Origin: Acidobacteria bacterium RIFCSPLOWO2_02_FULL_65_29
GTDB lineage: Bacteria > Acidobacteriota > Vicinamibacteria > Vicinamibacterales > CAVVIG01
DNA: 64,000 nt
Assembly: GCA_001767435.1 (NCBI GenBank)
Contig: MEKT01000037.1
Coordinates: 25,840-89,839 of the forward strand
Direction: 5' to 3'
Of this stretch, positions 12,832 to 40,256 are shown one piece after another (position 1 is the first letter of the stretch; each line of letters opens with the position of its first letter). A program made the position numbers and the translations under genes. The notes beneath the pieces are model-generated. The model saw only the letters and a list, made by a program, of their open reading frames with translations, had not been told where the DNA came from and did not search any database.

Positions 12832-12957
12832 ACCCGTGAGGCTCGGGGCTCAAGTCCTCAAATCTTCGGGTCTCTTCGTGGCTCTCTTTTTCGTGCTTTC
12901 GTGTTTTCGTGGCTCTTCTTCGTGCCTTCGTGTCTTCGTGGCCTATAATCCGCCAAC

Positions 12958-14163: not shown

Positions 14164-14311
14164 AACGAGAACAGCGGTCGCACACTCCTTGAACGGAAAA
14201 GCCCAAGGGCTCGCTTACAGTCTTGTTCATCACTGTGCTATTTGCTAACAGCAGGGCAGCTCGGGCCGAACGAGGGCAAACGGGAGGCCATGCGCAATCA
14301 AATGTCGCAGA

Positions 14312-14815
14312 ATGCACATCAAGTCACCAGGTCGTGTTGGCACAACGCTTGATGAGTTGACCGCCTTGAGTCATCCGACTGTTCATGCCGTGCCGATGAG
14401 CGCTCTCGTACCTCACATTCGCGTCCGCGATGGCGATCGAGCTTCCACCGGCAAGGCAAGCGGTTCGGACGCCGAGTCGGTGCGAGCGGAGCTGAAAGCG
14501 ATGCTGGCGATCATCGACGCCTTCGTGAGCGTCCCGGACGAACGAATCCGCGCGAGGATGCTGGCCTGGACGTGCGAACGTTTTGGGGGAAGTTCAGGAA
14601 CGACGCCACGAGGCGCCACTGAATCGCCGTACGCACAAACTGCGCCGGTTGCCTCTCGGCCCGGTACGCAAGCGAAGCAGGAGCAGATATCAGTCGAGGG
14701 CCTCGAAGCTCTGTTCCACGAAGGCCGGCCGGGTCCAGGGCGATTTCCGCCGCCCACGTACCGGCGCCGGCGTCTTAGACCGACGCTGATGCTCCGATTC
14801 CGGTGGTGGACGTGA
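14312..14815 (+). CDS. Hypothetical protein (weak)
   Basis: Only the ORF supports it. Locally lower GC, no recognisable motif. Internal starts are possible (for example MSALVPH). Confidence 0.3.
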   Translation: MHIKSPGRVGTTLDELTALSHPTVHAVPMSALVPHIRVRDGDRASTGKASGSDAESVRAELKAMLAIIDAFVSVPDERIRARMLAWTCERFGGSSGTTPRGATESPYAQTAPVASRPGTQAKQEQISVEGLEALFHEGRPGPGRFPPPTYRRRRLRPTLMLRFRWWT

Positions 14816-14908
14816 GGGTCAGGCGACCTAGGCCTGTCCCACGAGCCAGATTCGGCCGATAACTTGCTGCGGGTTGAGTTCTAGTCTGCACCGCCTCCGC
14901 TCACGACG

Positions 14909-17161
14909 ATGAGCAGCCTCTGTCGTGATTCCACTCCCGACCTGGTGGGCCGCGCGGGCCAGGCCCGCGGACCGCTTTCGACGCACGCCGTCCACAAGGA
15001 CGTACACATTCTCGATCTCCTGGCGGTCATCTATCGGTACCGGCGCATGGCCTTCTCGGTCTTCATCTTGACCACGATCGCCCTGATGATCCAGGGCTAC
15101 TCGGGCGTCCGGTTGTACCAGGCTAAAGCGCAGCTCCTGATCGAAGACGAGCGCTCGACGGCGATGCCGGGCATTGCGACCGGCCAGTACTACGAGGATC
15201 CTGTCCCCTACTACAACACGCAGCACCGTATCTTGCGAAGCCGCGAGCTCGCGCGGCGGGTCGTGAGGCGCCTGCAGCTCGGAACACATCCCGAGTTCAA
15301 TGGCACCGCGACGCCTCCCGTCACACTCGTGACGGCGGTACGAGCGGCGGCCGCGCGGGCGCTGCGGGGCCTGACCTTGTTGTCCGCGGCTGTCGAAGAG
15401 GAAGCGCCCACACCCGACGAGACCCCCGCTGAAGCGGCGCTCGTGGGCAACTTCCTCTCCCGGGTCGTCGTCACACCGGTCCCTGACAGCAAGCTGGTGG
15501 ACGTGTTCTTCACGGCGGCGGACCCCGCGGTGACGGCTCTGGCGGCCACCACGCTCGCCGAGGAGTACGTCGCGCAGAATCTCGAACTGAAGCAGCAGAG
15601 CACGCAGAACATGCTCGAGTGGCTCGAGAACGAAGTGGCGGCCCAGCAGACGAAGGTCGAGCAGAGCGAGCGCGATCTCGCGGAATATCGCGAGATGGAA
15701 AACGCGATGTCGCTCGACGACAAGAACAACATCGTCGTGTCGCGTCTCAACGCACTCAACGAAGCGAGCATTAGGGCTCGCACGGTTCGGATCGAGAAGG
15801 AATCGGTCAACAACCAACTCAAGGCCATCCGCGACACAAGGTCGGTAGACGCCATTCCGGTCATCACACAGAATTTGCAGATTCAGGCGCTCAGGAATCA
15901 ACTCGGTGATTTACAGCGCCAGAAAGCCAATCTCACCGAGCGCTATGGCGACAAGCACCCCGAGATGGTGAAAGTCAACGCCCAGCTTGCCGACGGGCAG
16001 CGTCAGCTCGACGTGGGGACCGCGAAGGCGCTCGAGTCGGTCAGGAACGAATACGAACGTGCGCTGATCGAGGAGCGGACACTCGCCGCCCATCTGGAGG
16101 AAGCCAAGCGAGACGCGCAGGATCTGAGCCGTAAGAGCGTCGGCTACAACGTGTTGGAACGCGAGGCGAAAAGCCATCGCACGGTCTACGAGTCGCTCCT
16201 GCAGCGCACCAACGAGTTGCGCGTGTCGAGCAACAGCCGGGCGAACAACGTTCGGCTTGTCGAGCGGGGTGAAGTGCCGGGAAGTCCTGTGACCCCGTCG
16301 GGCCGGCGCACCTGGGGCCTGTCTGTCGTGGTGGGGTTGTTCGCCGCCATCGCCGTCGCCTATGGCCTCGATTACATGAACGACACCGTCAAGACGCCCG
16401 AGGACGTCACGCGGTTTCTGAAAATGACCTTCCTCGGTCTCGTGCCGTCGGTCCGCGGCGACAAGCATCCGCTGATGGCCTCGTGGGACACACCGAAGCA
16501 CTTCGGCGAAGCGTTCCGAAACCTGCGCACAGCGATCATCGCGCTGTATCCGGGCGACGGGCCGAAGACCATGGCCGTGACGAGCGCGCAGCCGCTCGAA
16601 GGCAAGACGACGACCGCGTGCAATATCGCGTTGGCGTTGGCCTACGGCGGAATGCGAGTCCTCTTGATCGACGCCGATCTACGCCGGCCCGGTCTACACC
16701 TGTCGCTCCGTCTGACAAACGAACGGGGGCTGTCGCACGTCCTGGGCGGGCGGGCTCGTCTACGCGACGTCATCCAGCGCACTGTCGATCTGAACCTATT
16801 TGCGATCACCGCCGGTCCCACACCGTCCGAGCCGTCGGAGCTGCTGGCTTCGGAGCGGATGAAGATGCTCCTGAGCAGTCTGGCGCAGGGGCCATTCGAC
16901 TGGATCATCATCGATACCCCTCCGGTGCTCGGGGTGAGTGACGCCGTCGTCCTTACACCCTTGGTTACCGGCGTCACGTTCGTGGTCGGTGCCGAAATGA
17001 CGCGACGGCAGGTGGCTGAGCACGCAATCGAAACCATTCTGTCGAGCCGGCCAAAGCTGCTTGGCGTCGTGCTCAACAAGGTCGACTTCGCTCGGAACAA
17101 GTACTACTATTCACGCTACTACGGCCGGCAGTACGAGAACCACTACGCTGAAGCGGTCTAG
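14909..17161 (+). CDS. Polysaccharide co-polymerase / bacterial tyrosine autokinase (Wzc/GumC-type)
   Basis: Wzz-like N-terminal TM segment, a long coiled-coil periplasmic region and a second TM segment. Walker A SAQPLEGKTTTACNIA; C-terminal Tyr cluster NKYYYSRYYGRQYENHY. Confidence 0.85.
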   Translation: MSSLCRDSTPDLVGRAGQARGPLSTHAVHKDVHILDLLAVIYRYRRMAFSVFILTTIALMIQGYSGVRLYQAKAQLLIEDERSTAMPGIATGQYYEDPVPYYNTQHRILRSRELARRVVRRLQLGTHPEFNGTATPPVTLVTAVRAAAARALRGLTLLSAAVEEEAPTPDETPAEAALVGNFLSRVVVTPVPDSKLVDVFFTAADPAVTALAATTLAEEYVAQNLELKQQSTQNMLEWLENEVAAQQTKVEQSERDLAEYREMENAMSLDDKNNIVVSRLNALNEASIRARTVRIEKESVNNQLKAIRDTRSVDAIPVITQNLQIQALRNQLGDLQRQKANLTERYGDKHPEMVKVNAQLADGQRQLDVGTAKALESVRNEYERALIEERTLAAHLEEAKRDAQDLSRKSVGYNVLEREAKSHRTVYESLLQRTNELRVSSNSRANNVRLVERGEVPGSPVTPSGRRTWGLSVVVGLFAAIAVAYGLDYMNDTVKTPEDVTRFLKMTFLGLVPSVRGDKHPLMASWDTPKHFGEAFRNLRTAIIALYPGDGPKTMAVTSAQPLEGKTTTACNIALALAYGGMRVLLIDADLRRPGLHLSLRLTNERGLSHVLGGRARLRDVIQRTVDLNLFAITAGPTPSEPSELLASERMKMLLSSLAQGPFDWIIIDTPPVLGVSDAVVLTPLVTGVTFVVGAEMTRRQVAEHAIETILSSRPKLLGVVLNKVDFARNKYYYSRYYGRQYENHYAEAV

Positions 17162-17190
17162 AAGATCGCCTCCCACCGCGTATCGGGGCC

Positions 17191-17354
17191 TAGCAGCCCG
17201 TGGTGAAAGTCTGGCTGCATTCGACGGGCGATGCATCCTCGCCGGCTGCGTTGCTCCTCGCTCACATACTCCCGGTATGCTCGGTCGTCGCGCCTTGCCG
17301 GCGAGGCGCCTCGCCCGTCTCGGTGCGACGCCAGACTTTCGCCACAGGCTGCTA
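17191..17354. mobile_element. MITE-like palindromic element, copy 1 (160 bp flanked by TA)
   Basis: Terminal inverted repeats gcagcccgtggtgaaagtctggc / gccagactttcgccacaggctgc, with internal arms also complementary. About 150 of 160 nt are identical to the copy at 22917-23076. Confidence 0.6.
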
Positions 17355-17404
17355 ATGGCAGACGTCTCGCCCGCCCGTGTCATGGCTCGCGACAGGAACG
17401 CTCG

Positions 17405-17433
17405 TTGACACGGCGCGCCGCCGGCTCTATATT
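17405..17433 (+). promoter_or_regulatory. Near-consensus sigma70-type promoter for the radical SAM operon
   Basis: TTGACA (17405-17410), exactly 17-nt spacer, TATATT (17428-17433). It lies about 110 nt upstream of the first operon ATG. Confidence 0.5.
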
Positions 17434-17544
17434 CAGCGCCCTGGTGATTTCTCGACACCCGTGGTCATCGTTGTGTTTCGGCGACACGGACGAGTGACAA
17501 GACGCGCGCAGTGACGCGGGACGAGATCCCGAGGTGGGCACAGG

Positions 17545-18522
17545 ATGAGCGTCCGATCCGTTCCGGGCGACGCGCTGGACACGATGCGCCGCACTGCGAT
17601 GACTCGCTCGCTGTTGGGACGGTTTCCATGGGCCGGCCAGTGGGAGCTGACATGCCGCTGCAACCTCAGATGTGTGATGTGCTACACGGACTGCTTCAAT
17701 ACGTCCGCACACGTCAGGCAGGAGCTCGCCACCGAGGACATCGTTCGTATTCTCGATGAACTGCAGGAAGCCGGATGCGTCGAGCTGACGTTCACCGGAG
17801 GCGAGCCGTTGTCGCGGCCCGATTTTCTGACAATTTACGGAGCCGCACACGAGCGCGGGTTTGTCCTCACCGTCTTCACCAACGGTACGTTGATTACGCC
17901 GGCCGTTGCCGACTGCTGGGCGCTCGCCCGGCCCAGGAGCGTCGAGATTTCTGTCCACGGTGTGTCGGCCCGGGTCTTCGACGGTGTGACTCGAGTTCCT
18001 GGATCGCTCGAGCGCTGCTTGGCGGGCATCGAGCTGGTGATGAGGCGGCGGATTCCAGTCGTTTTGAAAACGGTGGGGCTGATTTCGAATTGGCACGAGA
18101 TTCTGGCGATCAAACAGTTCGTCGACTCGCTCGGCGGCGCGACGTGGCGGTTCGGCCAGTACTTGCGTGACGACCTCGCTGGCACGAGTGCTCCGTTTCA
18201 GTTTCAGCTTCCCGAGGCGAGACTGCGGACGCTCGAGCAGCAGGACCGCGAGCTCTGGGAAGCCAAGTGCGGCGAGATCGCCTGGTCCGAGTCGATCGCG
18301 CACAAGACCTGCGGTGGCGGGCAGCTGACCTTTCACATCGACGCCTACGGCCAGCTTCAGCTGTGTTCGAACAATAGGCGAGGTGGCTACGACCTGCGCG
18401 CCGGCTCATTCCGTGCCGGCTTCGACGAGGTCCTGCCAACCTTGCCCTGTCAAGGCCGAACCAGGACTCATCCGGAGACCATGCCCCTGCACGTCACGCG
18501 GCCGCGGCGGACGGCGTCGTGA
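17545..18522 (+). CDS. Radical SAM protein A (C-terminal auxiliary-cluster region reduced or disrupted)
   Basis: CX3CX2C in ELTCRCNLRCVMCY and a GGEPL SAM-binding motif. Paralog of the ORFs at 20201 and 22218. Only CGGG...C...C remains in the C-terminal region. Confidence 0.85.
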   Translation: MSVRSVPGDALDTMRRTAMTRSLLGRFPWAGQWELTCRCNLRCVMCYTDCFNTSAHVRQELATEDIVRILDELQEAGCVELTFTGGEPLSRPDFLTIYGAAHERGFVLTVFTNGTLITPAVADCWALARPRSVEISVHGVSARVFDGVTRVPGSLERCLAGIELVMRRRIPVVLKTVGLISNWHEILAIKQFVDSLGGATWRFGQYLRDDLAGTSAPFQFQLPEARLRTLEQQDRELWEAKCGEIAWSESIAHKTCGGGQLTFHIDAYGQLQLCSNNRRGGYDLRAGSFRAGFDEVLPTLPCQGRTRTHPETMPLHVTRPRRTAS

Positions 18523-18537
18523 ACTCGAGGATTCTGA

Positions 18538-20220
18538 GTGCCAACATCGGACGAGTCTCAAAGCAGGATAGCTCGCGTAGGTGTTGAACCCGTGCAGGAT
18601 ATCCGAACGGTCGAAAACCACGATGCGGCGTATGACATCTGGAAGGCCGCTGGCGCTCGAAACCGAGTTCTGGTTCATGTCGACGGGCACGTCGACTTCG
18701 AGTGGATGAACGATCACGTTGCCGATGAGCTTCTGGCCGCGCGCAGCTCAGTGGAGATCCAGCGGCTGCTTGCCGAGACGAGCGCCTGGCATTTCGACGA
18801 ACGGCCGTTGCGCGAACGGGTCACCCCCGCGAATTTCATCTATCCGGCGATAAAGGAGGGTCTCGTTCGCGAGTTCATCTGGATCATGCCCGATGCCTTC
18901 TGGGCAAGCCCCGCAGCACGTCGCGTGATTCGCGATGGTTTGGAGCAGACACTGCGCCGGGGCTCGCCAGAGGCCGGCCCCCTACGCGTGTCCAACGGCG
19001 GCATCCGTTTTCGTCTGCTGGGGTGTCCTGTGACCGCGTGTACGCTCGCCACTTTGCCTCGCATCACCGAGCCGGTGCTGCTCGATATCGACGTCGATTA
19101 TCTCCTCACCACGAATCCGGCGGGGCCGGCCCCGTACTTCCAGCGCGAGCCGGCCGAGCCGTGGCTGTGGCCCAGCGCGTTCTTCCGGCGCCTCAGGTCG
19201 ACGCGTCTGAAGACGGACCTGCTGACCATCGCGTACTCCGTGGACGACGGTTTCACGCTGCTTCGCTACAAGTACTTTGGCGATCTGCTGCGACGCGCGC
19301 TCGGCGAGGCGTCCGAACGCGTGAGCGACGCCCCGGTTTCCGGGAGCGCTGCCGAGGCGTTCGATCACGTGAGCCGAAGCCTCTCCGCTCACGACATGCT
19401 CTCGACCGGTCGCTGGTGGCGAGAAATGGTGCGTCGAGATCCTTCCTATCGCTCGGTCTACGCGATCCCTGGATGGCGGGAAGAATGCGCTGGACGCTGG
19501 GACGCCGCGCTCGACATCTACCAGCGAATGATTGAGATCGATCCGGAATGGCACGTGCCGCATCTGGGAAGGGGTCGCGCGCTCTGGCAATTTGGCCGAT
19601 ATGCGGAGGCGGAAACGGCTTTCGAAGCGGCAGCCTCGCGGAGCTCCCGAGCGACGTCAGCCACGTACTGGCTGGGTCTTTGCCGATTTCGCCGCCAAGA
19701 TCTCGAAGGGGCCTCACGCGCCTGGACCGACGCGGTTCGAGCCGACCCACGCGATGGCTCGAGCCTGCATGGTTTGGCCTGCGTGGAGGCTCAACAAGGG
19801 CAGGCGAGAGCTGGCGGCGCCCGGATTGCTCGAGGAGAACGCCGGCAGTGGAACCGGAGACGAAAGGGACTATCTCACATGACGGACCTCCACGATCCGC
19901 TCGGCACGCGCTATGAGCATGAGCCAAGCATCGTGACCCGCCGCGTCGCCGGCGAGGTCATCCTCGTGCCGACGCGCCAGATGAGCGGAGACGCTGCCCT
20001 TTTCACACTGGACGAAGTGGCAGCTTTTCTCTGGGAACGGTTGGACGGGCAGAGGACCGGCAAGGACCTCGTCGCGGCTCTGGAGTCGTCATATGCCGCT
20101 GAACCGGAACAGGCCGCCGCTGATGTGCGCACCTTTCTGGAGCAGCTCGAATCAATTGACGCAGTGCGGCGCGTGTCGGAGTCCCGCCGGGCGACGAATC
20201 ATGGCCCGGCCTCTCGCTGA
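18538..20220 (+). CDS. Multidomain ORF: UPF0489/arginase-deacetylase-like N-domain, TPR repeats and a C-terminal PqqD-type (RRE) domain
   Basis: Uninterrupted 560-codon frame. N-terminus VENHDAAYDIW...LVHVDGHVDF resembles the UPF0489 signature. TPR-like helices span aa about 290-420. The last 113 aa (from ATG 19879, preceded by aaaggga) are PqqD-like (VAGEVILVP...LFTLDEVAAFLWERLDGQRTGKDLVAAL). Confidence 0.7.
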   Translation: MPTSDESQSRIARVGVEPVQDIRTVENHDAAYDIWKAAGARNRVLVHVDGHVDFEWMNDHVADELLAARSSVEIQRLLAETSAWHFDERPLRERVTPANFIYPAIKEGLVREFIWIMPDAFWASPAARRVIRDGLEQTLRRGSPEAGPLRVSNGGIRFRLLGCPVTACTLATLPRITEPVLLDIDVDYLLTTNPAGPAPYFQREPAEPWLWPSAFFRRLRSTRLKTDLLTIAYSVDDGFTLLRYKYFGDLLRRALGEASERVSDAPVSGSAAEAFDHVSRSLSAHDMLSTGRWWREMVRRDPSYRSVYAIPGWREECAGRWDAALDIYQRMIEIDPEWHVPHLGRGRALWQFGRYAEAETAFEAAASRSSRATSATYWLGLCRFRRQDLEGASRAWTDAVRADPRDGSSLHGLACVEAQQGQARAGGARIARGERRQWNRRRKGLSHMTDLHDPLGTRYEHEPSIVTRRVAGEVILVPTRQMSGDAALFTLDEVAAFLWERLDGQRTGKDLVAALESSYAAEPEQAAADVRTFLEQLESIDAVRRVSESRRATNHGPASR

Positions 20221-21298
20221 AGAGCAGTACGGTCAGTTCAGCGCCCGCGTCTGCAGTCGCACCATCGCCGACGCGCAACCGACTCGTGTCCAGTTCGAGC
20301 TGACCTACAGGTGCAATATCCATTGCGTGCACTGCTACACCGACCCCTTCAACACCCTGGACGCTGTCGGGCGTGAGCTCGATCTGCACGAGATCTCGAG
20401 GATCTTTGACGAGCTGGCTGATGCGGGTGTGCTGTGGATGACGATGACAGGCGGTGAAGCCCTCGTGCATCCTCAGTTCCGGCGGATCTATCAGGAAGCC
20501 AAACGCCGGGGATTCATCATCAGCCTCTATTCGAACGGGACGACGGTTTCCGAGAGCCTCGCGGACTTCCTTGCCGCGGACCCGCCGTTCACGATTGACG
20601 TGAGCTGCCACGCGGCCACGAGCGGAACCTTCGACAGGATCACCCAAGTCTCCGGTTCCTTCAATCTGTTTCAGCAGGGCGTTGGTCGGCTGATGGCGAG
20701 AGCGTTGCCGCTCACGATCAAGACGAAGGCGATGACGACAAACCGGCACGAGCTCTCGCGGATCAAGACGCTGGTGGAAGACCTCGGGCTCGACTTCCAT
20801 GTCTTCACGACGATTCATCCACGTCTGAACGGGGACCTGACGTCCACCCACTACCGGCTGACACCGCGAGAGATCATCGATCTCGAGGTGGGAGAGACAG
20901 CCGATGGCTGTGAAGGTGTGTGCGGCTCGCGCGATCGGGCCGGTGCCAACACCCTGACAGAGCCTCCCTCCGATGATCGGTTGTTTCGCTGCGGGTGCGG
21001 GACCAACACCTGCACGATCAATCCCTACGGGGTTCTGCGAGCCTGCACCCATACCACCTGGCCTTCGATCGACCTGAACACCACGCCATTTGCGCAGGCG
21101 TTCGCGCGCCTTGTCAACCAAGTGCGGAATGCCCGATACACAGGCGCGTCGCCGTGCGCGGCGTGTACGGCCCATGTCTTCTGCCACAAGAACCCGGCAA
21201 TGGCCGTGCACGAAGCGGGTGCGATGGAGGCGCCGGTGACCCATTACTGTGAAGTGGCCTTTGGCAAAGCCGCGCGGCTTGGGCAGACGTGCAAATGA
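20201..21298 (+). CDS. Radical SAM/SPASM protein B
   Basis: ELTYRCNIHCVHCY cluster motif. Cys-rich tail FRCGCGTNTC...C...CAACTAHVFC...C. The start at 20201 (MARPLAEE) overlaps the previous ORF by 20 nt. Confidence 0.85.
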   Translation: MARPLAEEQYGQFSARVCSRTIADAQPTRVQFELTYRCNIHCVHCYTDPFNTLDAVGRELDLHEISRIFDELADAGVLWMTMTGGEALVHPQFRRIYQEAKRRGFIISLYSNGTTVSESLADFLAADPPFTIDVSCHAATSGTFDRITQVSGSFNLFQQGVGRLMARALPLTIKTKAMTTNRHELSRIKTLVEDLGLDFHVFTTIHPRLNGDLTSTHYRLTPREIIDLEVGETADGCEGVCGSRDRAGANTLTEPPSDDRLFRCGCGTNTCTINPYGVLRACTHTTWPSIDLNTTPFAQAFARLVNQVRNARYTGASPCAACTAHVFCHKNPAMAVHEAGAMEAPVTHYCEVAFGKAARLGQTCK

Positions 21299-22221
21299 CG
21301 GTTCGATTCCAGTTCGGACCGGCGACGATCGATCTTGTCGCTGACCGCTGGCCCGAGGATGTGACGGCCGGGCACTACGGGCCGTTCGTGTCCAACCCGG
21401 AGGGCCCCGCCGACCTCACCATCCACGTCCATCGCGATCGAGCGCCCAGTTGCGGCCGGGTTTCGCCCGCCGCGCAACTACCGACCAACTGGGCCCTGTA
21501 CCGGTGCCGATCGGGCTATCGCCTGGAAATCCTGGAGCAAGTCACATTCGCACCACGGCAGATAGTCTTGCTGGATCGATCATTGAGCCGCGCTGACGTC
21601 TACGCGGCGTCGGGAGCTGGGCTCCCAGGGTATCCGCCGGGGAGCTGGTGTCTGGCTCTGGTGATGAATCCGTTCGTGCAGTGGTGGCTCACGGCCTTCC
21701 TCGCGCTTCGAGCGCGGGGCGTGTTGCTGCATGCTTCCGCGGCGGCCTTCAATGGGGCGGGCCTTGCGTTTGCCGGACCTTCCGGCGCGGGCAAGACGAC
21801 GACCGTTCGGAGGTGTCGAGATCGCGCCGGGGCGGTCGTGCTCAACGACGAGCGGATCATCGTGTGGCGAACCGCGGAGGGGGTCAAGGTGGCTGGCACG
21901 CCCTGGCACGGGGAACTCCCCGAGGTTGCCGCCTTGGTCGTACCTCTGGTCGGGCTCTTCATGCTGACCAAGAACGCAACGAACCGCTATCTCCCGTGGC
22001 CGCCGCCACGTATGGTGGCGGGCATCATGTCGGAAGCGTTTCTCCCTATCTGGAGCGTCGAGGCCATGGCGGGCCTGCTCGAAGCGGCGGAGCACATCGT
22101 ACGCGCGGTTCCGAGCGGCGAGCTGCAGCTCGCGAACGACCGCGACGTCGCGGACTACCTGCGGCGCTTCGTGGATGTCGGGCCCAGCACGCCGTGGGCG
22201 GTCGCCGTGGGGTCGCCATGA
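21295..22221 (+). CDS. HPr-kinase-like P-loop protein (HprK-related, ScmC-like)
   Basis: LLHASAAAFNGAGLAFAGPSGAGKTTT matches the HprK C-terminal-domain P-loop context. ATGA overlap with the upstream stop; GTG alternative at 21289. Confidence 0.75.
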   Translation: MTVRFQFGPATIDLVADRWPEDVTAGHYGPFVSNPEGPADLTIHVHRDRAPSCGRVSPAAQLPTNWALYRCRSGYRLEILEQVTFAPRQIVLLDRSLSRADVYAASGAGLPGYPPGSWCLALVMNPFVQWWLTAFLALRARGVLLHASAAAFNGAGLAFAGPSGAGKTTTVRRCRDRAGAVVLNDERIIVWRTAEGVKVAGTPWHGELPEVAALVVPLVGLFMLTKNATNRYLPWPPPRMVAGIMSEAFLPIWSVEAMAGLLEAAEHIVRAVPSGELQLANDRDVADYLRRFVDVGPSTPWAVAVGSP

Positions 22222-23468
22222 ACGAGATATCGTTCGAGCGCCTGGTCTTTGGCGTGGACGACGAAGCCCGGGCCGCCCCGCATCTCGTGCAGGCGATGGT
22301 GGAGCTCACCTATGGCTGCAACCTGCGGTGTGTTCACTGCTACAACCCGACGCACGACGCGCAAGACGAGCTGCGGACCGAGGCTGTCCTGCGGATCCTA
22401 GACGAGCTGGCCCACGAGGGATGCCTCCGCGTCGGCTTTACCGGCGGCGAGCTCTTCGTTCGTCGCGATACCTTCGACATCCTGCGTCACGCAAAACGGC
22501 TCGGGATGATCCTCACGATTCTCACCAATGCGACGATGATCACATCGAAGATCGCGGATCGTCTTGCCGCGCTCGATCCCCACCAGGTCGACGTCTCGGT
22601 CTACGGCGCAAGCGCCGAGACGTATGAAACCGTCACGAGAGTCCCCGGCTCCTTCCTCCGATTTTTGAGCGGTCTGGATCGGCTCGTCGAGCGGCATGTT
22701 CGCGTGTTGCTCAAGCTCGTCCTGCTCACCGTGAACGTCCACGAGCGCCGCCAGATGCAAGAGCTTGCGATGAGCCGAAATCTTCGTTACCAGATGGCGA
22801 CCGACGTGCACCCGAGGGTTGACGGATCGATCGAGCCGCTGGCCTATCGTCTCTCGCCAGCGCAAGCGTTCGAAGTCTGGCGCGAGTCTGCCGAGCCGAT
22901 CCCGTCAGCGAGCCTAACAGCCCGTGGTGAAAGTCTGGCTGCATTCGACGGGCGATGCATCCCCGCCGGCGGCGTTGCTCCTCCCTCAAATACTCCCGGT
23001 ATTCTCGGTCGTCGCGCCTTGCCGGCGGGGCGCCTCGCCCGTCTCGGTGCGACGCCAGACGTTCACCACGGGCTGCTAACGTCTGGCGGTTCCCAGATGC
23101 GGGGGGCTTCCCGTGCGAAAGCAGAGGAACCCTCCTGTGGATTCGATGGGCGGGTGTTTCACTGTCGTTGCGGAAAATCGAATGTGGCCGTGACGCCCCA
23201 CGGCAGGCTCAATCTGTGCCTCTCGGTTTATCACCCACGATACGACCTCACACGCGGCAGCCTGAAAGACGGTTGGAAGCAGCTCGTGGATCTGGTTGCG
23301 TCGGCCAGACCAGGACCGGCCTACGAGTGCAATCGGTGCTCCCTCACCGAGCATTGCTCGCGCGGCGTGGGCGATAGCTGGCTCGCGACCGGCCAATTCG
23401 ACAATCCATGTATGCCGCACTACCGGGAGCTGGCCGAGCGCAAGGCAAGTTTCCTCAGGGAGCGGTAA
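22218..23468 (+). CDS. Radical SAM/SPASM protein C carrying an in-frame MITE-derived 54-codon insert
   Basis: ELTYGCNLRCVHCY cluster motif. SPASM-like tail HCRCG...C...ECNRCSLTEHC...C. ATGA overlap with the upstream stop. The insert lies at 22915-23078, in the linker between the core and the SPASM region. Confidence 0.85.
   Translation: MNEISFERLVFGVDDEARAAPHLVQAMVELTYGCNLRCVHCYNPTHDAQDELRTEAVLRILDELAHEGCLRVGFTGGELFVRRDTFDILRHAKRLGMILTILTNATMITSKIADRLAALDPHQVDVSVYGASAETYETVTRVPGSFLRFLSGLDRLVERHVRVLLKLVLLTVNVHERRQMQELAMSRNLRYQMATDVHPRVDGSIEPLAYRLSPAQAFEVWRESAEPIPSASLTARGESLAAFDGRCIPAGGVAPPSNTPGILGRRALPAGRLARLGATPDVHHGLLTSGGSQMRGASRAKAEEPSCGFDGRVFHCRCGKSNVAVTPHGRLNLCLSVYHPRYDLTRGSLKDGWKQLVDLVASARPGPAYECNRCSLTEHCSRGVGDSWLATGQFDNPCMPHYRELAERKASFLRER
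22915..23078. mobile_element. MITE-like palindromic element, copy 2, inside a coding region
   Basis: Same 160-bp element as 17193-17352, flanked by TA. Element plus one TA is 162 bp (54 codons), with no stop in the host frame. Confidence 0.6.
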
Positions 23469-23482
23469 CCGGAGGTCTTCTC

Positions 23483-23701
23483 ATGGAGCACGAACGCGCG
23501 CGGAAAAAGTACCACCCACCGACGATCACTCGGGTCGTCTTGCGGCCCGAGCAGGCCATTCTGAGCCAGTGCAGCACGATGGGGATGTCCGCTCGAGACC
23601 TCGGCAGCCCGAGCGTGATGACGTGTGCGTTCGGACCCGACAATTGCCGCGCGTGGGCCGGCACCGGCAGGTTTGTCGACAGCGGGTATCGCCCCTCGTA
23701 A
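23483..23701 (+). CDS. Candidate RiPP precursor peptide (72 aa)
   Basis: GGAGG at 23471-23475, 7 nt before the ATG. Peptide: MEHERARKKYHPPTITRVVLRPEQAILSQCSTMGMSARDLGSPSVMTCAFGPDNCRAWAGTGRFVDSGYRPS. It has a YxxPxI leader-like motif, 3 Cys and a C-terminal Ser. Confidence 0.55.
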   Translation: MEHERARKKYHPPTITRVVLRPEQAILSQCSTMGMSARDLGSPSVMTCAFGPDNCRAWAGTGRFVDSGYRPS

Positions 23702-23703
23702 GG

Positions 23704-24180
23704 ATGAGAGGGCTCCTGACGCGGCCGCGGCATCCAAGCGGGATTCCTGAACGGACGGGACGAATCTCCGACTATCTCGAGGTGGCGGATCTTCTCGTTT
23801 GCCAGCGAAGATTGCGCTTCCGAGTCTCGTCGGACAGCATGGTGCCCAGTCTGCGACCGGGGGATCTCGTGCGGCTCCGCCCTGTGTTCGACCGGCTCGC
23901 CGCGGGCGATCTCGTCGCGATGCGCCTGGGGGACCGCATCATCTGTCATCGCGTCACGCGCTGCTACCCTGACGAAGACGGCCGACAGTGGGTGGTGACG
24001 AAAGGCGATCGGAGCGCTGCCGAGGATTTCCCCAGTTCCGCAGCCCTGATCGTCGGTCGGGTCACCGAGGTGATTCGACCGCCGGTCTGGAATCGCCTCA
24101 TGTGGCGCACGCGCGGCTTCCTGTGCGCGCTGTTGGCGCGCCGCCGCAAAGCGTCTGAACGTCAGAGGTCACCGTCTTGA
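23704..24180 (+). CDS. S26B-type (SipW/Sec11-like) serine peptidase, candidate leader peptidase
   Basis: Motif series SDSMVPSLRPGD ... GDLVAM ... CHRV ... TKGDRSAAED parallels the archaeal/SipW-type signal peptidase boxes. It starts 2 nt after the precursor stop. Confidence 0.65.
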   Translation: MRGLLTRPRHPSGIPERTGRISDYLEVADLLVCQRRLRFRVSSDSMVPSLRPGDLVRLRPVFDRLAAGDLVAMRLGDRIICHRVTRCYPDEDGRQWVVTKGDRSAAEDFPSSAALIVGRVTEVIRPPVWNRLMWRTRGFLCALLARRRKASERQRSPS

Positions 24181-25052
24181 AATCGCCGAGCGAGCCTCGC
24201 CCAGCTCAGGCCGCTGCCGAACCCACCGAATGGGCGCGACCCTGGCGCCTTGAAGCCACAAGGCGACTGCTACTTGCCGCGCGGGGGTTGGAGTTTTTCA
24301 GCCTCGCGATCCCGCGTCCGGACGATTTGATCGGATCGGCGCACCGGTTCTACGCCAAGCCGGAAGTGGTCACCGGCATGGCGGAGAGTGCCGATGCCGA
24401 CCTGTATCCGCACGAGAAGGCCGCTCTGGAACGATTCGCTCCTCACCCGACCGATGCGCTCGTGCTGGGTTGCGGCGCGGGGCGGGAAGCGATCGCGTTG
24501 GTGAAGCGGGGCTGGAGCGTCGTGGGCCTGGACGCCGGGCCCGCGCTGATTGAGGCCGCGAAGCTGAACGCCGCTCGAGCCGACGTCCGCATCGACTTCC
24601 GCTGCCACGACATCACGCGGCCATTTCATGTCGATGTCGATCGCGTGTTCGACCTCGTCTGCATCTTCGGCGTCGTTTACAGCCTGATCCCGAGTCGTCC
24701 GCTGCGGGTGGCCACTCTCCGCACCTGTCGCACGCATCTGGCGCCTGATGGCGTGTGCGTCTTGGACTTTGCGGCCCGCGAGAACCCGACGAGCCCGCGC
24801 GAGCTTTGGGCCCACCGCTGGCGCCAGCGACTTGCTTGGGCGACCCGCGGAAATCGAGACTGTCAGATCGGTGACCACTGGTTCGCTGGCGTCCTCTGCA
24901 TGCACGCATTTGCCCATCCCGACGAAGTGTCGAAAGAGGCCGAGGAGGCCGGTTTCCATACTGAGATGTTGCGGGACCCTGGCTACCCGCCGGTCGCGGT
25001 GTTGACACACCGCCCTCACCCTCACGAAATGTCGTCTCGAGACGCCGACTGA
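24177..25052 (+). CDS. Class I SAM-dependent methyltransferase
   Basis: Motif I VLGCGAGREA and post-I VVGLD. TTGA overlap with the upstream stop. An internal ATG (MAESAD) is an alternative start. Confidence 0.8.
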   Translation: MKSPSEPRPAQAAAEPTEWARPWRLEATRRLLLAARGLEFFSLAIPRPDDLIGSAHRFYAKPEVVTGMAESADADLYPHEKAALERFAPHPTDALVLGCGAGREAIALVKRGWSVVGLDAGPALIEAAKLNAARADVRIDFRCHDITRPFHVDVDRVFDLVCIFGVVYSLIPSRPLRVATLRTCRTHLAPDGVCVLDFAARENPTSPRELWAHRWRQRLAWATRGNRDCQIGDHWFAGVLCMHAFAHPDEVSKEAEEAGFHTEMLRDPGYPPVAVLTHRPHPHEMSSRDAD

Positions 25053-25092
25053 CCGGCTCCCACACGTCGCGTCACCGGTCACGGTTCCGGCT

Positions 25093-26244
25093 TCAGAAGA
25101 TGTCGAGAGGCGAGCGACGGCGAAGCCACTTCCCCACGCCGCGGACGATTCGACGGGCGTACAGCAGTGGGAGAAGCACGGCGATTGAGGTGTTGTTGGA
25201 ACGCAGGACGTATTCCGCGGAAGGAAAAAGATGCTGGTAAACGAGTCGAAGTCTGTCTGGCCACCTGGGAAGGGCCCGCAGGTCGGAGATGAACACATCC
25301 GCCTTGCGCCGGCCATTCTTCAAGAATGCCGCCGATCGCTCGACCTCGCCGAATGGTGTCTTCGCGATGAGATCGCTGAGCACAAACGAAGGGACCGGCG
25401 CGCCGCATGAGCGCTGGGCAGCCCGCAGCCCGCTCGCGCAGATCGCCCGGACGCGCCTCTGGCCGGCCAACTCCATGAAACGGTTCCACTGCTGTTCGGA
25501 CATGCCGGCGGCGAGTAGATGGATGTCGTACAGCCAGATCAGCCGGCGCGTGTTGTTGTGGTGGGCAACCCGATGAACGCATGCGAGCAACAGGGCGTGG
25601 ACCGCCGACAGGCCCCGCGCGCCCGCGCCGAGATAGGCGACCTGCACGGCCTCACAGGCGAGGTCGTCAAAGCTCGCCAGCTGTGCAAACGTTTGCGGCT
25701 CGGCGAGGCGCCAATGAATGTCGAACTCATACTTGAGGCCAAGGCGAGCGTCGCGCTGATAGAGAGTCTGATAGGTGACGAGTTCGCCGCTGACGCGTAC
25801 GCCAGGGCAGTAACCGAGATCGTTCATGAGACGACCGGCCGGCTGGCGATCGGATTCTCTGATCAGCAGATCGACGTCCGAGCAGGGCCTCAGGCAGGGA
25901 CTGGGATAATGAGTGTACGCCAGGTGCGTACCCTTGAGCAGCAGCGGATGGACTCCGCCCTCGAACAGCGCGCGTAGCACCCGCCTCAGTTCGACAAAGC
26001 GAAGCGACTCGGAGAACACCTGTGCGCGCGTCTCGGCCGCGAGGATCGTCCGCACGCGGTCGGGCCATTCTTGGCCCTCGCCGCGGTGGTAAAGCAGATG
26101 AGCCAGCAATGACTGGATGCCGTGCGCCCTGGCAGCCTGGATGAAACGCTCCTCCATGTCGCCGTTCCAGCTGGCGGGCCACCGTACAGGGTTGCCGCGC
26201 AGCGCTGCGGCGAGCAGAGCCTCGATCACGATGGGCCTTGTCAA
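25093..26244 (-). CDS. Uncharacterised nucleotidyltransferase family protein (PF14907-like)
   Basis: 383-aa ORF with LLLKGTHLAYTHYPSPCLRPCSDVDLLI and a later DIHW motif, typical of that family (from memory). Convergent with the operon. Confidence 0.65.
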   Translation of the reverse strand: MTRPIVIEALLAAALRGNPVRWPASWNGDMEERFIQAARAHGIQSLLAHLLYHRGEGQEWPDRVRTILAAETRAQVFSESLRFVELRRVLRALFEGGVHPLLLKGTHLAYTHYPSPCLRPCSDVDLLIRESDRQPAGRLMNDLGYCPGVRVSGELVTYQTLYQRDARLGLKYEFDIHWRLAEPQTFAQLASFDDLACEAVQVAYLGAGARGLSAVHALLLACVHRVAHHNNTRRLIWLYDIHLLAAGMSEQQWNRFMELAGQRRVRAICASGLRAAQRSCGAPVPSFVLSDLIAKTPFGEVERSAAFLKNGRRKADVFISDLRALPRWPDRLRLVYQHLFPSAEYVLRSNNTSIAVLLPLLYARRIVRGVGKWLRRRSPLDIF

Positions 26245-26429
26245 CTCAGCGTATTCAAGATGCGCGTCGAATCACTCAGCGTAACCGGCGTCAAGAGCAT
26301 ACGATTGTTTGGGCCGATGAGCACTCATGCTTGATCTACACCCGCGGGCTACTGGGTTTTTCCCGCGGGCTGCTAAGATAGGATTCGACCAAGATCGCAG
26401 TGATCGTCTATTCAGGGAGGATGACCATC

Positions 26430-26879
26430 ATGATGCTGCGTCAGATCGTGCCGCTTGCCGGTGTGCTCGCCCTTTCCGTGGCCGTGTTCGCCCAGGGCCC
26501 GCGGCGCGACGGCAGGTGGGAAGTGACCACACAAATGGAAATGGCCGGGATGCCGGGCGGACGCGGCATGCCCGCGATGACCGCCACTCAGTGCATCACC
26601 AAGGAGCAGGCCGACGACCCGCAGAGGATGACGCCGCAGCCGCCGCAGCGCGGGGGCGGCCAGAACGACTGCAAGGTGTCGGACTACAAGATCGTCGGCA
26701 ACAAGGCCACGTGGACGATGAAGTGCACCACGCCGCAGGAGATCGACGGCACGGGCGACGTGACGTACGGCAACGACACGTACGAAGGCACCATGACGAT
26801 GAACATGGCGCGCGGCGGCCAGGCCATGCAAATGACGATGAAGATGAACGGCAAGCGGCTTGGAGACTGTACGCAGTAG
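26430..26879 (+). CDS. DUF3617-like secreted/lipoprotein-type protein
   Basis: GGGAGG at 26415-26420. Signal peptide MMLRQIVPLAGVLALSVAVFAQG. Conserved Cys spacing and a C-terminal KRLGDC. Confidence 0.7.
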   Translation: MMLRQIVPLAGVLALSVAVFAQGPRRDGRWEVTTQMEMAGMPGGRGMPAMTATQCITKEQADDPQRMTPQPPQRGGGQNDCKVSDYKIVGNKATWTMKCTTPQEIDGTGDVTYGNDTYEGTMTMNMARGGQAMQMTMKMNGKRLGDCTQ

Positions 26880-26975
26880 GGCGTTCGTCGTTCTTCGTGC
26901 GGCGTTCGTCGTTCTATTCGTTCGACGTTCGACGTTTTCCGAACGACAGCACGTCGCACGGAGAACGCCGCACGG
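26880..26975. terminator. Long imperfect hairpin between convergent genes
   Basis: cgtgcggcgttc pairs with gaacgccgcacg, and further arms are built from the words cgttcg / acgtcg / cgcacg. Confidence 0.45.
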
Positions 26976-26977
26976 TT

Positions 26978-28216
26978 TCACCGCGCGACATGTGCCACTG
27001 TCTTTTCTACGAGGCGCAGGTACGCGCGGATCGTTTTCTCGAGATGCGGTTCGGGCGTGTCCTCTTCCTTGCAGTGCGACAACCCGTTCGACGAGTACGC
27101 GAACATCATCACGACCGGCATGAGCGGCACCATCTCGGCCGCGTCGTGCAGGGGTCCCGAGGGTAGTCTCGGCGCGTCGCCGGTTTCCTCGTGAACCGAC
27201 TCCTCGCACAACCGGACCAGGTTTCCATCGAACAATCGAGGTTCGATGCGCCACAGCCGCTTCCATTCCACCGTGACGTTGTTCTCGAGCGCTGATCGAG
27301 CGGCGACGCCGCGCGCGTCGAGCAGCATCGCGGCCAGCACGCTCGCGTCGAGCGCGCGCTGATCGAGCGAGATCTCGCAGACGCCTGGCACCGCAGTCAC
27401 GATTTTCGGCTCCACGTTCACGATGCCCACGGTGCAGACGACGCCGGCGCCCGGGGCCGAGTGGCGCCTGGCGATCTCGCGGCATCCGAGCGACGTCTGA
27501 GCCGCGGCGAGAAACGCGTCGCGGCGCATGGGAATCGGCGTCGATCCAGCGTGCGCGGCCTGCCCGGTGAAGCGCAGCATGTGGCGCTCGACGCCGAAGG
27601 TGCCGAGCACGACGCCCGTCGGCTTCCCCAGCGACTCCAGAACGGGCCCTTGCTCGATGTGCAGCTCCAGGTACGCGCGCGCGTCGATCGCCTGCAGCTC
27701 CTGGTGCGCGTCCCGCATGCGTTCCACCGACACACCGTTCTCTGCGAGCGCGTCGGGGAGCGTCGTGCCCTGCCGATCCTTCAGTCCGCGCACATCGTCG
27801 AGGTCGAGGCTGCCGGAGGCGGCCGACGATCCGAGCAGGCTCCGTCCGAATCGCGCACCCTCCTCGTCGGCCCAGTCGACGAGTTTCAGCGTGACGGGCG
27901 GCGTCGCGCCCGCGTGCATGCGCAGCGCCTCGATCGAAGCGGCCACGCCGAGCGCGCCGTCCAGCCAGCCGCCGTTCGGCACCGAGTCGAGGTGCGAGCC
28001 GACGATGACGGATTTTTGTGAGGCGCCGCGAATGGTGACCCAGTTGTTACCGGCCGAGTCGGTCGTGACGGGAAGCCCGAGCGGCGCGACCTTGCGTGTG
28101 AACCAGGCGCGCGCGTCGCGCCACACGGGACCCCACGCGAGGCGCTGGGCGCCGTCGGAGGTCGAGGTGAGCGCAGCCAGCTCGCGCAGATCTGAAATCA
28201 CTCGTGACGCGTCCAT
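26978..28216 (-). CDS. M20 family amidohydrolase (allantoate amidohydrolase / N-carbamoyl-amino-acid hydrolase type)
   Basis: 412-aa ORF. N-terminus ISDLRELAALTS...AGNNWVTIRG...VIVGSHLDSVPNGGWLDGALGV is typical of this family. Confidence 0.85.
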   Translation of the reverse strand: MDASRVISDLRELAALTSTSDGAQRLAWGPVWRDARAWFTRKVAPLGLPVTTDSAGNNWVTIRGASQKSVIVGSHLDSVPNGGWLDGALGVAASIEALRMHAGATPPVTLKLVDWADEEGARFGRSLLGSSAASGSLDLDDVRGLKDRQGTTLPDALAENGVSVERMRDAHQELQAIDARAYLELHIEQGPVLESLGKPTGVVLGTFGVERHMLRFTGQAAHAGSTPIPMRRDAFLAAAQTSLGCREIARRHSAPGAGVVCTVGIVNVEPKIVTAVPGVCEISLDQRALDASVLAAMLLDARGVAARSALENNVTVEWKRLWRIEPRLFDGNLVRLCEESVHEETGDAPRLPSGPLHDAAEMVPLMPVVMMFAYSSNGLSHCKEEDTPEPHLEKTIRAYLRLVEKTVAHVAR

Positions 28217-28253
28217 AGCGGCCTCATGTTAACAGCAGTGTTAGGATCGTGCG

Positions 28254-29381
28254 ATGCGTCCTCTCATGCTCGCGTGCGCTGTGGCGACCGGCCTCGCGCT
28301 CGCGGCGCCTTCGGCCCAGCAAGCGCCCGAACCGCCGCGGCCGATCGACCCCGGCGGCGTGGCGTTGCCACCTGAAGCCGAGTCAGAAGCCCAGACGCGG
28401 TTCTCGTTCATCGCCTACGGCGACACGCGCGGCCAGGCCGACGGCTCCGCGCTGCAGATCGACCATGGGAAGGTTGTGGACGCGATGATCGCCACGATCA
28501 AAGCGCGCGCGTCGGGCCCGTTCCCGGTGCGGTTCATCGTGCAGTCGGGCGACGGTGTCACGGCCGGATCCAACGCCGCGCAGTGGAACGTGAGCTACAC
28601 ACCGCTCGTCGAGCGGCTGCTGGGCGAGGGCGGCGTGCCGTACTTCCTGGCGGTCGGCAATCACGACGTGACCGCGCGACCGATCGACGACCCGCAGCGC
28701 CAGCCGGGGCTGCGCAACACCCTTGCGGTGATGTCGAAGATCTATCCGCCCGACGGATCTCCCCGGCGCCTGGACGGCTACCCAACGTTCGCCTTCGGCT
28801 ACGGCAACGTGTTCGTGCTATGCCTGGACTCGAACATCGCGGTCGACCGGCCGCAGCTCGAGTGGGTCGACAGGCAGCTCGACGGACTCGACCGCGCGCG
28901 CTACCGGCACGTGATTGCCGTGGTTCATCACCCCGTGCTGTCTTCCGGCCCGCATGGCGGTCCGATCGTCGAAAGCCAGACAGCGACTCTCCGTCAGCTG
29001 TACATGCCGCTGTTTCGCCGGCATCACCTGCGCCTGGTGATCGCGGGACACGATCATCTGTTCGAGCATTGGGTCGAGCGGTACACGGACGCCACCGGAC
29101 GCCATCGCCTCGACGAGGTCGTGACGGGCGGTGGAGGGGCCCCGATCTACACGTATCGCGGCGAGCCAGATCTTGCCGACTACCTGTCGGCCGGCGCGGC
29201 ACAACAGGTCAGCGTCGAGCATCTCGTCAAGCCGGGCCCGACCGTCGACGACAACCCGCATCACTTCGTCGTCGTGCAGGTGGACGGCGACTCGCTGTCG
29301 CTCGAGGTCGTCGGCATCGGACCGGCGCCGTTCCTGCCGTACGGGCGGCACGTCATCGAGCTGGCCGACCCTTCCCAATGA
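28254..29381 (+). CDS. Secreted metallophosphoesterase (calcineurin-like)
   Basis: Signal peptide plus the motifs FIAYGDTRG, QSGDG, AVGNHD and GHDH. Confidence 0.8.
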   Translation: MRPLMLACAVATGLALAAPSAQQAPEPPRPIDPGGVALPPEAESEAQTRFSFIAYGDTRGQADGSALQIDHGKVVDAMIATIKARASGPFPVRFIVQSGDGVTAGSNAAQWNVSYTPLVERLLGEGGVPYFLAVGNHDVTARPIDDPQRQPGLRNTLAVMSKIYPPDGSPRRLDGYPTFAFGYGNVFVLCLDSNIAVDRPQLEWVDRQLDGLDRARYRHVIAVVHHPVLSSGPHGGPIVESQTATLRQLYMPLFRRHHLRLVIAGHDHLFEHWVERYTDATGRHRLDEVVTGGGGAPIYTYRGEPDLADYLSAGAAQQVSVEHLVKPGPTVDDNPHHFVVVQVDGDSLSLEVVGIGPAPFLPYGRHVIELADPSQ

Positions 29382-29919: not shown

Positions 29920-30089
29920 CGTCTCACCGGGCCATATCCGACGCGATCGTGGACCGATGGATGACAGCCGAGTGGTCGACGATGGACTTTCTACGCCTTG
30001 GTCTCGTGACGTATCACGATACGGACGTTCGAGCGAGCACGTTCGGCGCGACGTTCAGTTGGATTCGTTCGGGCAGTGAGCGTTCGGGA

Positions 30090-40240: not shown

Positions 40241-40256
40241 TCGTTAGTCCTGCCAA

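Follow-up and report, generated by a model that had tools for sequence, protein, structure and literature searches.

Homologues of the kinase HprK phosphorylate the C-terminal Ser of lasso peptide precursors, and a lasso nucleotidyltransferase, sometimes fused to the leader peptidase, adds a hexose to that phosphate (PMC6993621, PMC8498205). Peptide arginases belong to the PF12640 family (PMC12703449), and for one of them, OspR, the ligands of the binuclear Mn site (His, Asp, His, Asp, Asp, Asp) and a Glu have been described (PMC10028609). The SynChlorMet cassette contains a PqqD homologue, the HprK-related protein ScmC (PF27840) and PqqE-like radical S-adenosylmethionine (rSAM)/SPASM enzymes. 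In this study, we analyzed a window of 64,000 nucleotides (the whole stretch of DNA, to which all positions refer unless another locus is named) from Acidobacteria bacterium RIFCSPLOWO2_02_FULL_65_29. Its cassette comprises eight open reading frames (ORFs) that run in one direction (17545-25052) and, convergent to them, a nucleotidyltransferase gene (25093-26244). We propose, with a probability of about 0.78, that this locus is a gene cluster for a peptide that is made by ribosomes and modified post-translationally (RiPP). It would belong to a large undescribed family of modules made of PqqD, rSAM/SPASM enzymes, a small peptide and an ScmC-family protein. A sequence-only reading of the DNA had already seen RiPP logic here, and this is now supported by a conserved precursor family, a PqqD-type RiPP recognition element (RRE) and cross-phylum synteny. 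As is general for RiPP clusters, a small precursor gene adjoins modifying enzymes and is conserved together with them. No curated family covers the gene combination or the precursor family. The searchable literature contained nothing relevant on this cassette, SynChlorMet or ScmC, or a RiPP combination of HprK and PqqD with radical SAM.

The 72-aa ORF (23483..23701, plus strand) encodes a conserved precursor peptide with an N-terminal recognition module of 24 residues, a variable core and a near-universal C-terminal Ser. Its product is 100% identical to a hypothetical protein on record for Acidobacteria bacterium RIFCSPLOWO2_02_FULL_65_29. Eleven homologues with 50-75% identity were found, and their N-terminal half was far better conserved. 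Residues 10-31, the three Cys residues and the terminal Ser are almost invariant among the peptide and these homologues. The leader recognition module, K8-S31 (23504..23575, plus strand), has the sequence KKYHPPTITRVVLRPEQAILSQCS. A profile of the peptide was searched against 1.84 billion representative proteins, and the family comprised 139 short representatives at 50% identity. The leader motif, (K/R)PYxxPx(I/L)x(R/K)VxLxxEQA(V/I)LSxCS, was carried by 134 of the 139; 128 end in Ser, and 114 have exactly three Cys residues. Within the motif, Y, P, L, Q, A, L, and C are each 92-100% conserved, and in 120 of 123 members Cys1 lies at a distance of 20 residues from Tyr. About 80% of the members have Ser after Cys1, and 93 of 112 (83%) have Arg or Lys after Cys3. 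The core is rich in Ser, Thr, and Gly, contains the two further Cys residues and is hypervariable between them, and the tail often reads (G)DS(A/G)xxS. The C-terminal residue of the window peptide, Ser72 (codon at 23696..23698, plus strand), is the predicted phosphorylation site. No Pfam or NCBIfam model matches the precursor peptides. In the related loci translated by hand (loci are designated L001 and so on), the peptides end in Ser, except for Thr in L018.

The same genes recur elsewhere. Six contigs with a homologous peptide or ScmC protein (L001-L006) showed the same gene set. The peptide alignment alone was also used as bait against the GTDB species collection and a metagenome collection. 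Seven loci came from the former, belonging to Omnitrophota, Elusimicrobiota, three Nitrospiraceae and one deltaproteobacterial metagenome-assembled genome (MAG), and seventeen came from the latter. Cassette genes (rSAM and/or ScmC orthologues) lay beside the peptide gene in all baited loci except L015, where the peptide lies at the contig end. The small Cys-containing ORF therefore passed the neighborhood test of whether it travels with the enzymes, as had been suggested from the sequence. The genes for rSAM1, rSAM2, ScmC, and rSAM3 were all seen in every locus that was long enough, and long loci usually add PqqD, S24 peptidase, methyltransferase, and NTP_transf_5 genes in permuted order. In all of the ~30 related loci with cassette genes in view, the peptide adjoins orthologues of the window enzymes. 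These loci represent MAGs of Acidobacteriota, Nitrospiraceae, Omnitrophota, Elusimicrobiota, and Deltaproteobacteria, and the set of peptide plus enzymes is present in at least five other bacterial groups. This arrangement, with the same genes and a small ORF recurring across phyla, is far beyond chance.

More distant relatives have a minimal module of PqqD, one rSAM, a small peptide, and ScmC (L007, L008, L016, L018, and L019), often trailed by giant Peptidase_C25 proteins and NTP_transf_5, or by an S24 peptidase. The very large Peptidase_C25 (gingipain-like) proteins trail the minimal cassettes of L007, L008, L016, and L018. The peptides of the minimal modules have the leader motif, three Cys residues and a C-terminal Ser (Thr once). 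The window cassette elaborates, with three rSAMs, on a far larger family of PqqD, rSAM, peptide, and ScmC. That family counts over 680 ScmC-family proteins besides its 139 peptide representatives and extends across several phyla that are poorly cultured. One relative with three rSAMs, L017, has two methyltransferases and an ABC exporter in its cassette. Some peptides of the family deviate from the common form. Tandemly duplicated precursor genes were seen in L011 (9720-9974 and 10001-10237), L035 (9001-9424), and L036 (5770-6193); the duplicates of L011 are longer variants with five Cys residues ending in QGVRPS, and the copies in L035 and L036 were located by tblastn. In the peptides of L007, L008, L016, and L018, Cys1 is followed by Lys or Arg and not by Ser, which hints at a different leader-cleavage logic.

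The second gene of the cassette encodes a protein of 560 aa, which by its profile matches appears to be a fusion of a peptide arginase, a tetratricopeptide repeat (TPR) region and a PqqD-type RRE. The PqqD domain (19957..20154, plus strand; aa 474-539) scored 60 bits against PF05402 (cut-off 23.4), as had been read from the sequence; the gene ends at 20220. The TPR region (19384..19863, plus strand; aa 283-442) matched TPR_2, TPR_16, TPR_19, and TPR_14. The first 255 residues (18538..19302, plus strand) matched PF12640 (UPF0489) with 21.3 bits (cut-off 27) and the FlmR/OhkR peptide-arginase model NF052474 with 28.8 bits (cut-off 350), both below cut-off. A profile of this domain from six orthologues had a sole match in the PDB, the peptide arginase OspR (8brp_A, E 2.2e-11). 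E26, H28, D49, H51, D53, D183, and D185 are invariant among the orthologues of the domain. The six His and Asp residues align with the six Mn ligands of OspR, and E26 aligns with its Glu. The domain is thus homologous to peptide arginases, with intact ligands.

Among the known peptide arginases (OspR of landornamide, FlmR, and OhkR; PF12640), OspR shares the Mn-ligand His and Asp residues and the Glu with the window domain. However, the window domain is fused to TPR and RRE regions, and it is hosted by an rSAM cassette, whereas the hosts of OspR, FlmR, and OhkR are proteusin or lanthipeptide pathways. Since the 560-aa protein holds an arginase domain, a known RiPP tailoring enzyme was overlooked by the sequence-only reading, which had found no class-defining enzyme of a known family. 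The rest of that claim stood. Pfam and NCBIfam searches of the nine cassette proteins detected no lasso cyclase (Asn-synthetase-like), no B2 transglutaminase-type protease, and no YcaO, Lan, PqqB/C, or MftD/F enzyme. Membership in the lasso, YcaO, lanthipeptide, PQQ (pyrroloquinoline quinone), or mycofactocin classes was rejected on this domain evidence. The arginase-TPR gene was found in the window and in seven other loci (L001, L006, L009, L010, L017, L030, and L031). The PqqD units vary in number and placement. The window PqqD is orthologous to, and 76% identical with, the stand-alone second PqqD of L001. L001 (3919-5869) and L006 (5844-7895) have two consecutive PqqD units where the window has one fused domain, and the third PqqD of L001 lies on the minus strand.

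Three radical SAM enzymes, rSAM1 (17545..18522), rSAM2 (20201..21298), and rSAM3 (22218..23468), are encoded on the plus strand. They matched PF04055 with 80.1, 52.6, and 83.7 bits, respectively (cut-off 29.5), and the CX3CX2C motif is invariant in their orthologues. The context ELT(C/Y)xCN(L/I)xCVxCY, from which they had been called paralogues, was found in all three. In the orthologue alignments, rSAM1 has a short twitch-like tail with only three conserved downstream Cys residues (C256, C274, and C302), and rSAM2 and rSAM3 have SPASM-like tails with 7-8 conserved Cys residues each. The SPASM-like call for two of the enzymes is based on the Cys patterns of rSAM2 and rSAM3; PF13186 (SPASM) had no match in the cassette proteins at E<=0.01. 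In distant loci, every one of the three window rSAMs has a separate orthologue with 53-68% identity, whereas the paralogues share 30-38%, indicating that the triplication is old. The orthologues of rSAM1 were 47-68% identical in the loci covering this gene. The single rSAM of one-rSAM ScmC cassettes is closest to rSAM2, and we infer that rSAM2 is the core, ancestral enzyme of the wider family. It aligns over its full length to the MftC, PapB, and TIGR04133 models, all under cut-off.

The maturases of sactipeptides and ranthipeptides (AlbA, SkfB, StsB, PapB, and CteB) are likewise SPASM/twitch rSAMs that act on Cys-containing precursors. Models or structures of StsB, AlbA, SkfB, and PapB were matched by the window rSAMs, all below cut-off. 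The Radical_SAM domain begins at residue 28-34 in each window enzyme, so that none has a fused N-terminal RRE. The sactipeptide and ranthipeptide maturases, in contrast, have such a fused element, whereas the window rSAMs would rely on a discrete or fused PqqD. The presence of three non-redundant rSAM paralogues per cassette is also unlike these systems.

The ScmC-family protein (21295..22221, plus strand) is a P-loop phosphotransferase with the HprK/PEPCK fold. A protein that is 99% identical to it carries the PF27840 (ScmC) annotation, as do nearly all of 689 profile hits. An AlphaFold (AF2) model was built from 26 homologues with a predicted local distance difference test score (pLDDT) of 91.7, and its 50 best Foldseek matches were all PEPCK or HprK/P (E 7e-7 to 5e-4). 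A profile search of PDB sequences gave P-loop matches, of which the longest-range were HprK/P and PEPCK. The Walker A motif GxSGxGK(T/S) is invariant among the homologues, and H146, D185, and a T-P-W motif vary little or not at all. The model thus has a nucleotide-binding fold of the HprK/PEPCK type with a Walker A motif; kinase activity on Ser is predicted. The HprK-like assignment of the sequence-only reading agrees with this fold and with PF27840, and it found no counterpart in PF07475 (Hpr_kinase_C), which did not match any cassette protein at E<=0.01. The 26 homologues gave weak NCBIfam matches to HprK_rel_B (22/26), ScmC (18/26), HprK_rel_A (8/26), and HPr(Ser) kinase (3/26), none near a cut-off (best E-value 2.6e-8, TIGR04249). 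Within the HprK-related superfamily, the ScmC-family proteins form a clade of their own.

Three further activities had been noted beyond the Scm core, and their domains (Peptidase_S24, class I methyltransferase, and NTP_transf_5) were all found. The soluble S24/S26 serine peptidase (23704..24180, plus strand), of the SipW/archaeal signal-peptidase-like type, scored 28.9 bits against PF00717 (cut-off 23.3) and 35.6 bits against TIGR02228. Its SM-x-P motif and H-R pair are kept in 10/10 aligned sequences, and CHR and GD in 9/10 each. With no obvious N-terminal membrane anchor, this protein is a candidate leader peptidase. The class I SAM-dependent methyltransferase (24177..25052, plus strand; Methyltransf_25/11/12) has orthologues in L005, L006, and L017, which align only from residue ~24, and its TTG start is therefore doubtful. 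In L001-L004, a PRMT-type methyltransferase fills the same slot by non-orthologous replacement (10603-11646 in L001). The NTP_transf_5 nucleotidyltransferase (25093..26244, minus strand) matched PF14907 with 141.7 bits. It is also present in L001, L006, L009, L011-L013, L017, L035, and L036, and in one-rSAM cassettes. The S24 peptidase is fused to NTP_transf_5 in L009 (minus strand, ~3439-3786 and beyond) and L011 (~12310-13545). As judged from gene structure, these fusions would be a Rosetta-stone link between peptidase and nucleotidyltransferase, and they parallel the fusions of nucleotidyltransferase and B2 protease in lasso clusters.

SynChlorMet had been named from the sequence as the closest described entity. 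All four Scm models were matched and the resemblance is real. However, ScmC (TIGR04249) scored 20.5 bits against a cut-off of 125, ScmD (TIGR04248) 34.4 against 100, and ScmE (TIGR04250) and ScmF (TIGR04251) 75-87 and 66-69 over the three rSAMs against cut-offs of 400. Because all four equivalog models are far below cut-off, the cassette is a distant relative of SynChlorMet and not a member. In this comparison through the equivalog models, the window differs by a third rSAM and by its arginase, S24 peptidase, methyltransferase, and NTP_transf_5, and its precursor has been identified. The systems of paeninodin (PadeK) and pseudomycoidin (PsmK and PsmN) also resemble the locus, having a PqqD-type RRE, an HprK-homologous kinase, a precursor ending in Ser, and a nucleotidyltransferase, with a common logic of tailoring at the C-terminus (PMC6993621, PMC8498205). 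Unlike in these lasso pathways, the ring-forming chemistry of the window would come from rSAMs acting with three conserved Cys residues.

From these similarities a pathway can be proposed. The PqqD domain, fused to the arginase-TPR protein, would bind the leader and present the peptide. The core enzyme rSAM2 and its accessory paralogues rSAM1 and rSAM3 would install radical-mediated cross-links, most likely Cys-derived thioethers, and the arginase domain would convert at least one core Arg to ornithine by hydrolysis. Since the C-terminal Ser is near-universal, ScmC and NTP_transf_5 are predicted to act at the C-terminus, for which this is the strongest single argument. NTP_transf_5 may decorate the C-terminal phosphate, analogous to PadeK/PsmK and PsmN on lasso peptides. 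The methyltransferase would add a methyl group, and the soluble S24/S26 peptidase would cut off the leader. We offer only tentatively the stronger proposal that the locus is the substrate-resolved founder of a new cross-phylum RiPP class, cross-linked by up to three dedicated rSAMs, edited to contain ornithine by a leader-guided arginase and bearing on the terminal Ser a phospho-linked cap from an HprK-fold kinase and a nucleotidyltransferase; on balance we lean somewhat against it.

Several findings weigh against the RiPP pathway as proposed. We infer every chemical step, the step order and the nature of the final product. The NCBIfam rSAM/SPASM models matched by the window enzymes (ScmE/F, MftC, PqqE, NirJ, AhbD, StsB, AlbA, and PapB) gave 50-102 bits against cut-offs of 265-850, the best scores being 80-102 bits. 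No curated cut-off was reached, and therefore no window rSAM can be filed in a characterized family. The nearest solved structures, PqqE, SkfB, and BlsE, matched at 30-48 bits. Three Cys residues are also found in the peptides of one-rSAM relatives, and the number of rSAMs does not track the number of Cys residues. The relation between ScmC and HprK is distant (E ~3e-5 over 60 residues); the window ScmC is likened to PadeK/PsmK through common HprK homology, and the window NTP_transf_5 is likened to PsmN by the described role of the latter. The arginase-TPR gene was undetected in L011-L014, which makes its protein an accessory component. Because of this, and because the residue after Cys3 is often Lys in place of Arg, ornithine formation is not universal. 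In addition, the pathway of this strain may have been disabled by a transposable element in rSAM3.

This element resembles a miniature inverted-repeat transposable element (MITE) and bears on whether the cassette is decaying, with rSAM3 inactivated by the insertion and one or two PqqD genes lost relative to L001 and L006, so that a reduced or non-functional pathway would be left. The element is 162 nt long, has terminal inverted repeats of 24 nt and is flanked by TA. It has a long hairpin fold (z = -6.9) and occurs in two copies that are 92% identical. Copy 1 is intergenic (17192..17353) and ends ~50 nt upstream of the -35 hexamer of a candidate promoter, and copy 2 lies within rSAM3 (22916..23077). 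The rSAM3 protein is 416 aa here versus 365-387 aa in its orthologues, and the insertion is absent from 8/8 of them; likewise, one PqqD domain is present in the window versus 2-3 in L001, L006, and L017. However, the insertion adds 54 codons in frame, without a stop codon, in a length-variable linker just ahead of the SPASM Cys residues. The remaining genes are intact and tightly coupled, with normal G+C at third codon positions (GC3). The same rSAM3 allele was found in a second, independent sample: the L020 assembly carries the insertion and breaks inside it, so that the insertion is not an artefact of one assembly. The 54-residue insert may alter the activity of rSAM3 in this genome, and we consider decay of the cassette rather unlikely.

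Other interpretations of the cassette were considered. A PQQ- or mycofactocin-like redox cofactor would be a small intracellular molecule. The peptide would then be a sacrificial scaffold whose conserved C-terminal residues are cross-linked, excised, and decorated by the kinase, the nucleotidyltransferase, and the methyltransferase. The two known pathways have a stand-alone PqqD chaperone, rSAM/SPASM enzymes, a peptidase, and a small peptide whose C-terminus is conserved. The window family similarly has discrete PqqD proteins, PqqE/MftC-like rSAM/SPASM enzymes, the conserved tail (G)DS(A/G)xxS and a dedicated peptidase. The MftC and PqqE models rank among the best matches, and PqqE is the closest solved structure; yet their scores (77-91 bits versus 265 for MftC, TIGR03962; 59-74 versus 381 for PqqE, TIGR02109) are far under cut-off. 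The partner genes MftD/E/F and PqqB/C/F were absent from the cassette and flanks, as were partner dehydrogenases. The inter-Cys core is hypervariable, as in secreted RiPPs, and one-rSAM relatives are linked to the giant Peptidase_C25 proteins with Big_1/Invasin_D3/CLIPPER-type domains, which look secreted or surface-exposed. The sequence-only reading had suggested an intracellular cofactor from the lack of an exporter, and no ABC gene or other exporter was found in the 8-36 kb region of the window. This argument is weak, because ABC ATPase genes located by tblastn adjoin the cassette in L010, L017, L026, and L033. Exporter absence is thus not a family trait, which weakens the case for a cofactor, and we judge it improbable. 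Less probable still is a role in envelope polysaccharide synthesis, in which the C-terminal phospho-Ser would prime or anchor a glycan through NTP_transf_5 and a Wzc-like co-polymerase. PsmN-type enzymes add hexose to phospho-Ser (PMC6993621). A gene for a Wzc-like polysaccharide co-polymerase/BY-kinase (14909..17161, plus strand; GNVR and AAA_31/CbiA/ParA domains) adjoins the cassette in the window, and its homologues do so in L001 (230-2458), L006 (14140-16401), and L013 (11701-12057), four loci of different lineages. The cassette of L001 is embedded in an exopolysaccharide locus with Wzy_C, Bac_transf, GT4, and carbamoyltransferase genes. However, Wzc was undetected in most longer loci (L009-L012, L014, L017, L033, L035, and L036), no glycosyltransferase lies within 19 kb in the window, and the association may merely reflect shared genomic islands. 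We therefore regard the Wzc-like gene as a recurrent neighbor whose membership in the cassette is uncertain, and the polysaccharide role as very improbable. A non-peptide pathway, in which the rSAMs would be NirJ/AhbD-like enzymes for tetrapyrroles or small molecules and the small ORF would be incidental, is strongly disfavored. NirJ, NirJ2, and AhbD are among the top NCBIfam matches of rSAM1 and rSAM2, but at 80-92 bits versus 500-650 and over the rSAM core only. PqqD/RRE domains are present, and the small ORF adjoins the enzymes with a fixed motif across phyla. A RiPP gene cluster remains the preferred interpretation.

The gene arrangement agrees with expression as one unit. Every gap and overlap listed for the eight packed forward ORFs was verified in the ORF map and junction DNA, and the view of one co-directional, translationally coupled unit holds. 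After rSAM1 ends at 18522, a 15-nt gap precedes the GTG start of the 560-aa protein at 18538. The end of this gene at 20220 overlaps by 20 nt the rSAM2 gene, whose frame is open from 20093 and whose orthologue alignment begins at the 20201 ATG. ATGA overlaps join rSAM2 to ScmC (21295-21298) and ScmC to rSAM3 (22218-22221). A 14-nt gap with a GGAGG ribosome-binding site precedes the peptide ATG at 23483, a 2-nt gap precedes the peptidase ATG at 23704, and a TTGA overlap (24177-24180) joins peptidase and methyltransferase; all of these junctions are on the plus strand. A minus-strand ORF (23455-23949, 164 aa) overlaps the genes for the peptide and the S24 peptidase; we took it to be spurious, given the cross-phylum conservation of the plus-strand products. 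The promoter proposed ahead of rSAM1, a sigma-70-like TTGACA-17-TATATT (17405..17433, plus strand), is present with 11/12 matches and is the sole such site in 14000-28500. Shuffled sequence yields 1.7 +/- 1.3 sites, however, so that the site is not significant by itself. A riboswitch or leader RNA upstream of the cassette was rejected, as Rfam had no match in 16800-26600, including the leader region, at E<=0.1. A defence system was also rejected, the PADLOC matches being generic only (rSAM-core pVip at 46-59 bits, and methyltransferase).

The G+C content is ~65% across the whole window. Except for the Wzc-like gene, the flanks are functionally unrelated to the cassette and encode M16 peptidases, PurE, an MFS transporter, an M20 peptidase, and a phosphoesterase. 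An ORF of 1866 aa lies at 29772-35372, ~3.5 kb downstream. Two arrays of an 8-nt tandem repeat (AAATCCTC) were seen at 40231-40368 and 55427-55540, ~15 kb apart. A 55-nt direct repeat with 93% identity (40456-40510 and 41957-42011) is possibly another small repeat element; one copy lies just inside the 5' end of a beta-lactamase-like ORF (40373-41839), and the second copy follows shortly downstream of this ORF.

The individual parts of the locus, namely RRE, rSAM/SPASM enzymes, HprK-like kinase, peptide arginase, and leader peptidase, are familiar, and their combination belongs to no curated family. The precursor family offers a candidate substrate type for the ScmC/SynChlorMet-type cassettes, which are orphans at the level of annotation. 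It leads to testable predictions: a defined precursor, a leader motif, phosphorylation of Ser72, editing of Arg to ornithine and three separable rSAM steps. The tailoring pair of HprK-type kinase and nucleotidyltransferase at the C-terminus would gain a second biosynthetic context beyond lasso peptides. If the proposed pathway is true, its combination of modifications would be unmatched in any characterized natural product, and the long-missing substrate type of ScmC-family (SynChlorMet-like) cassettes would be identified.

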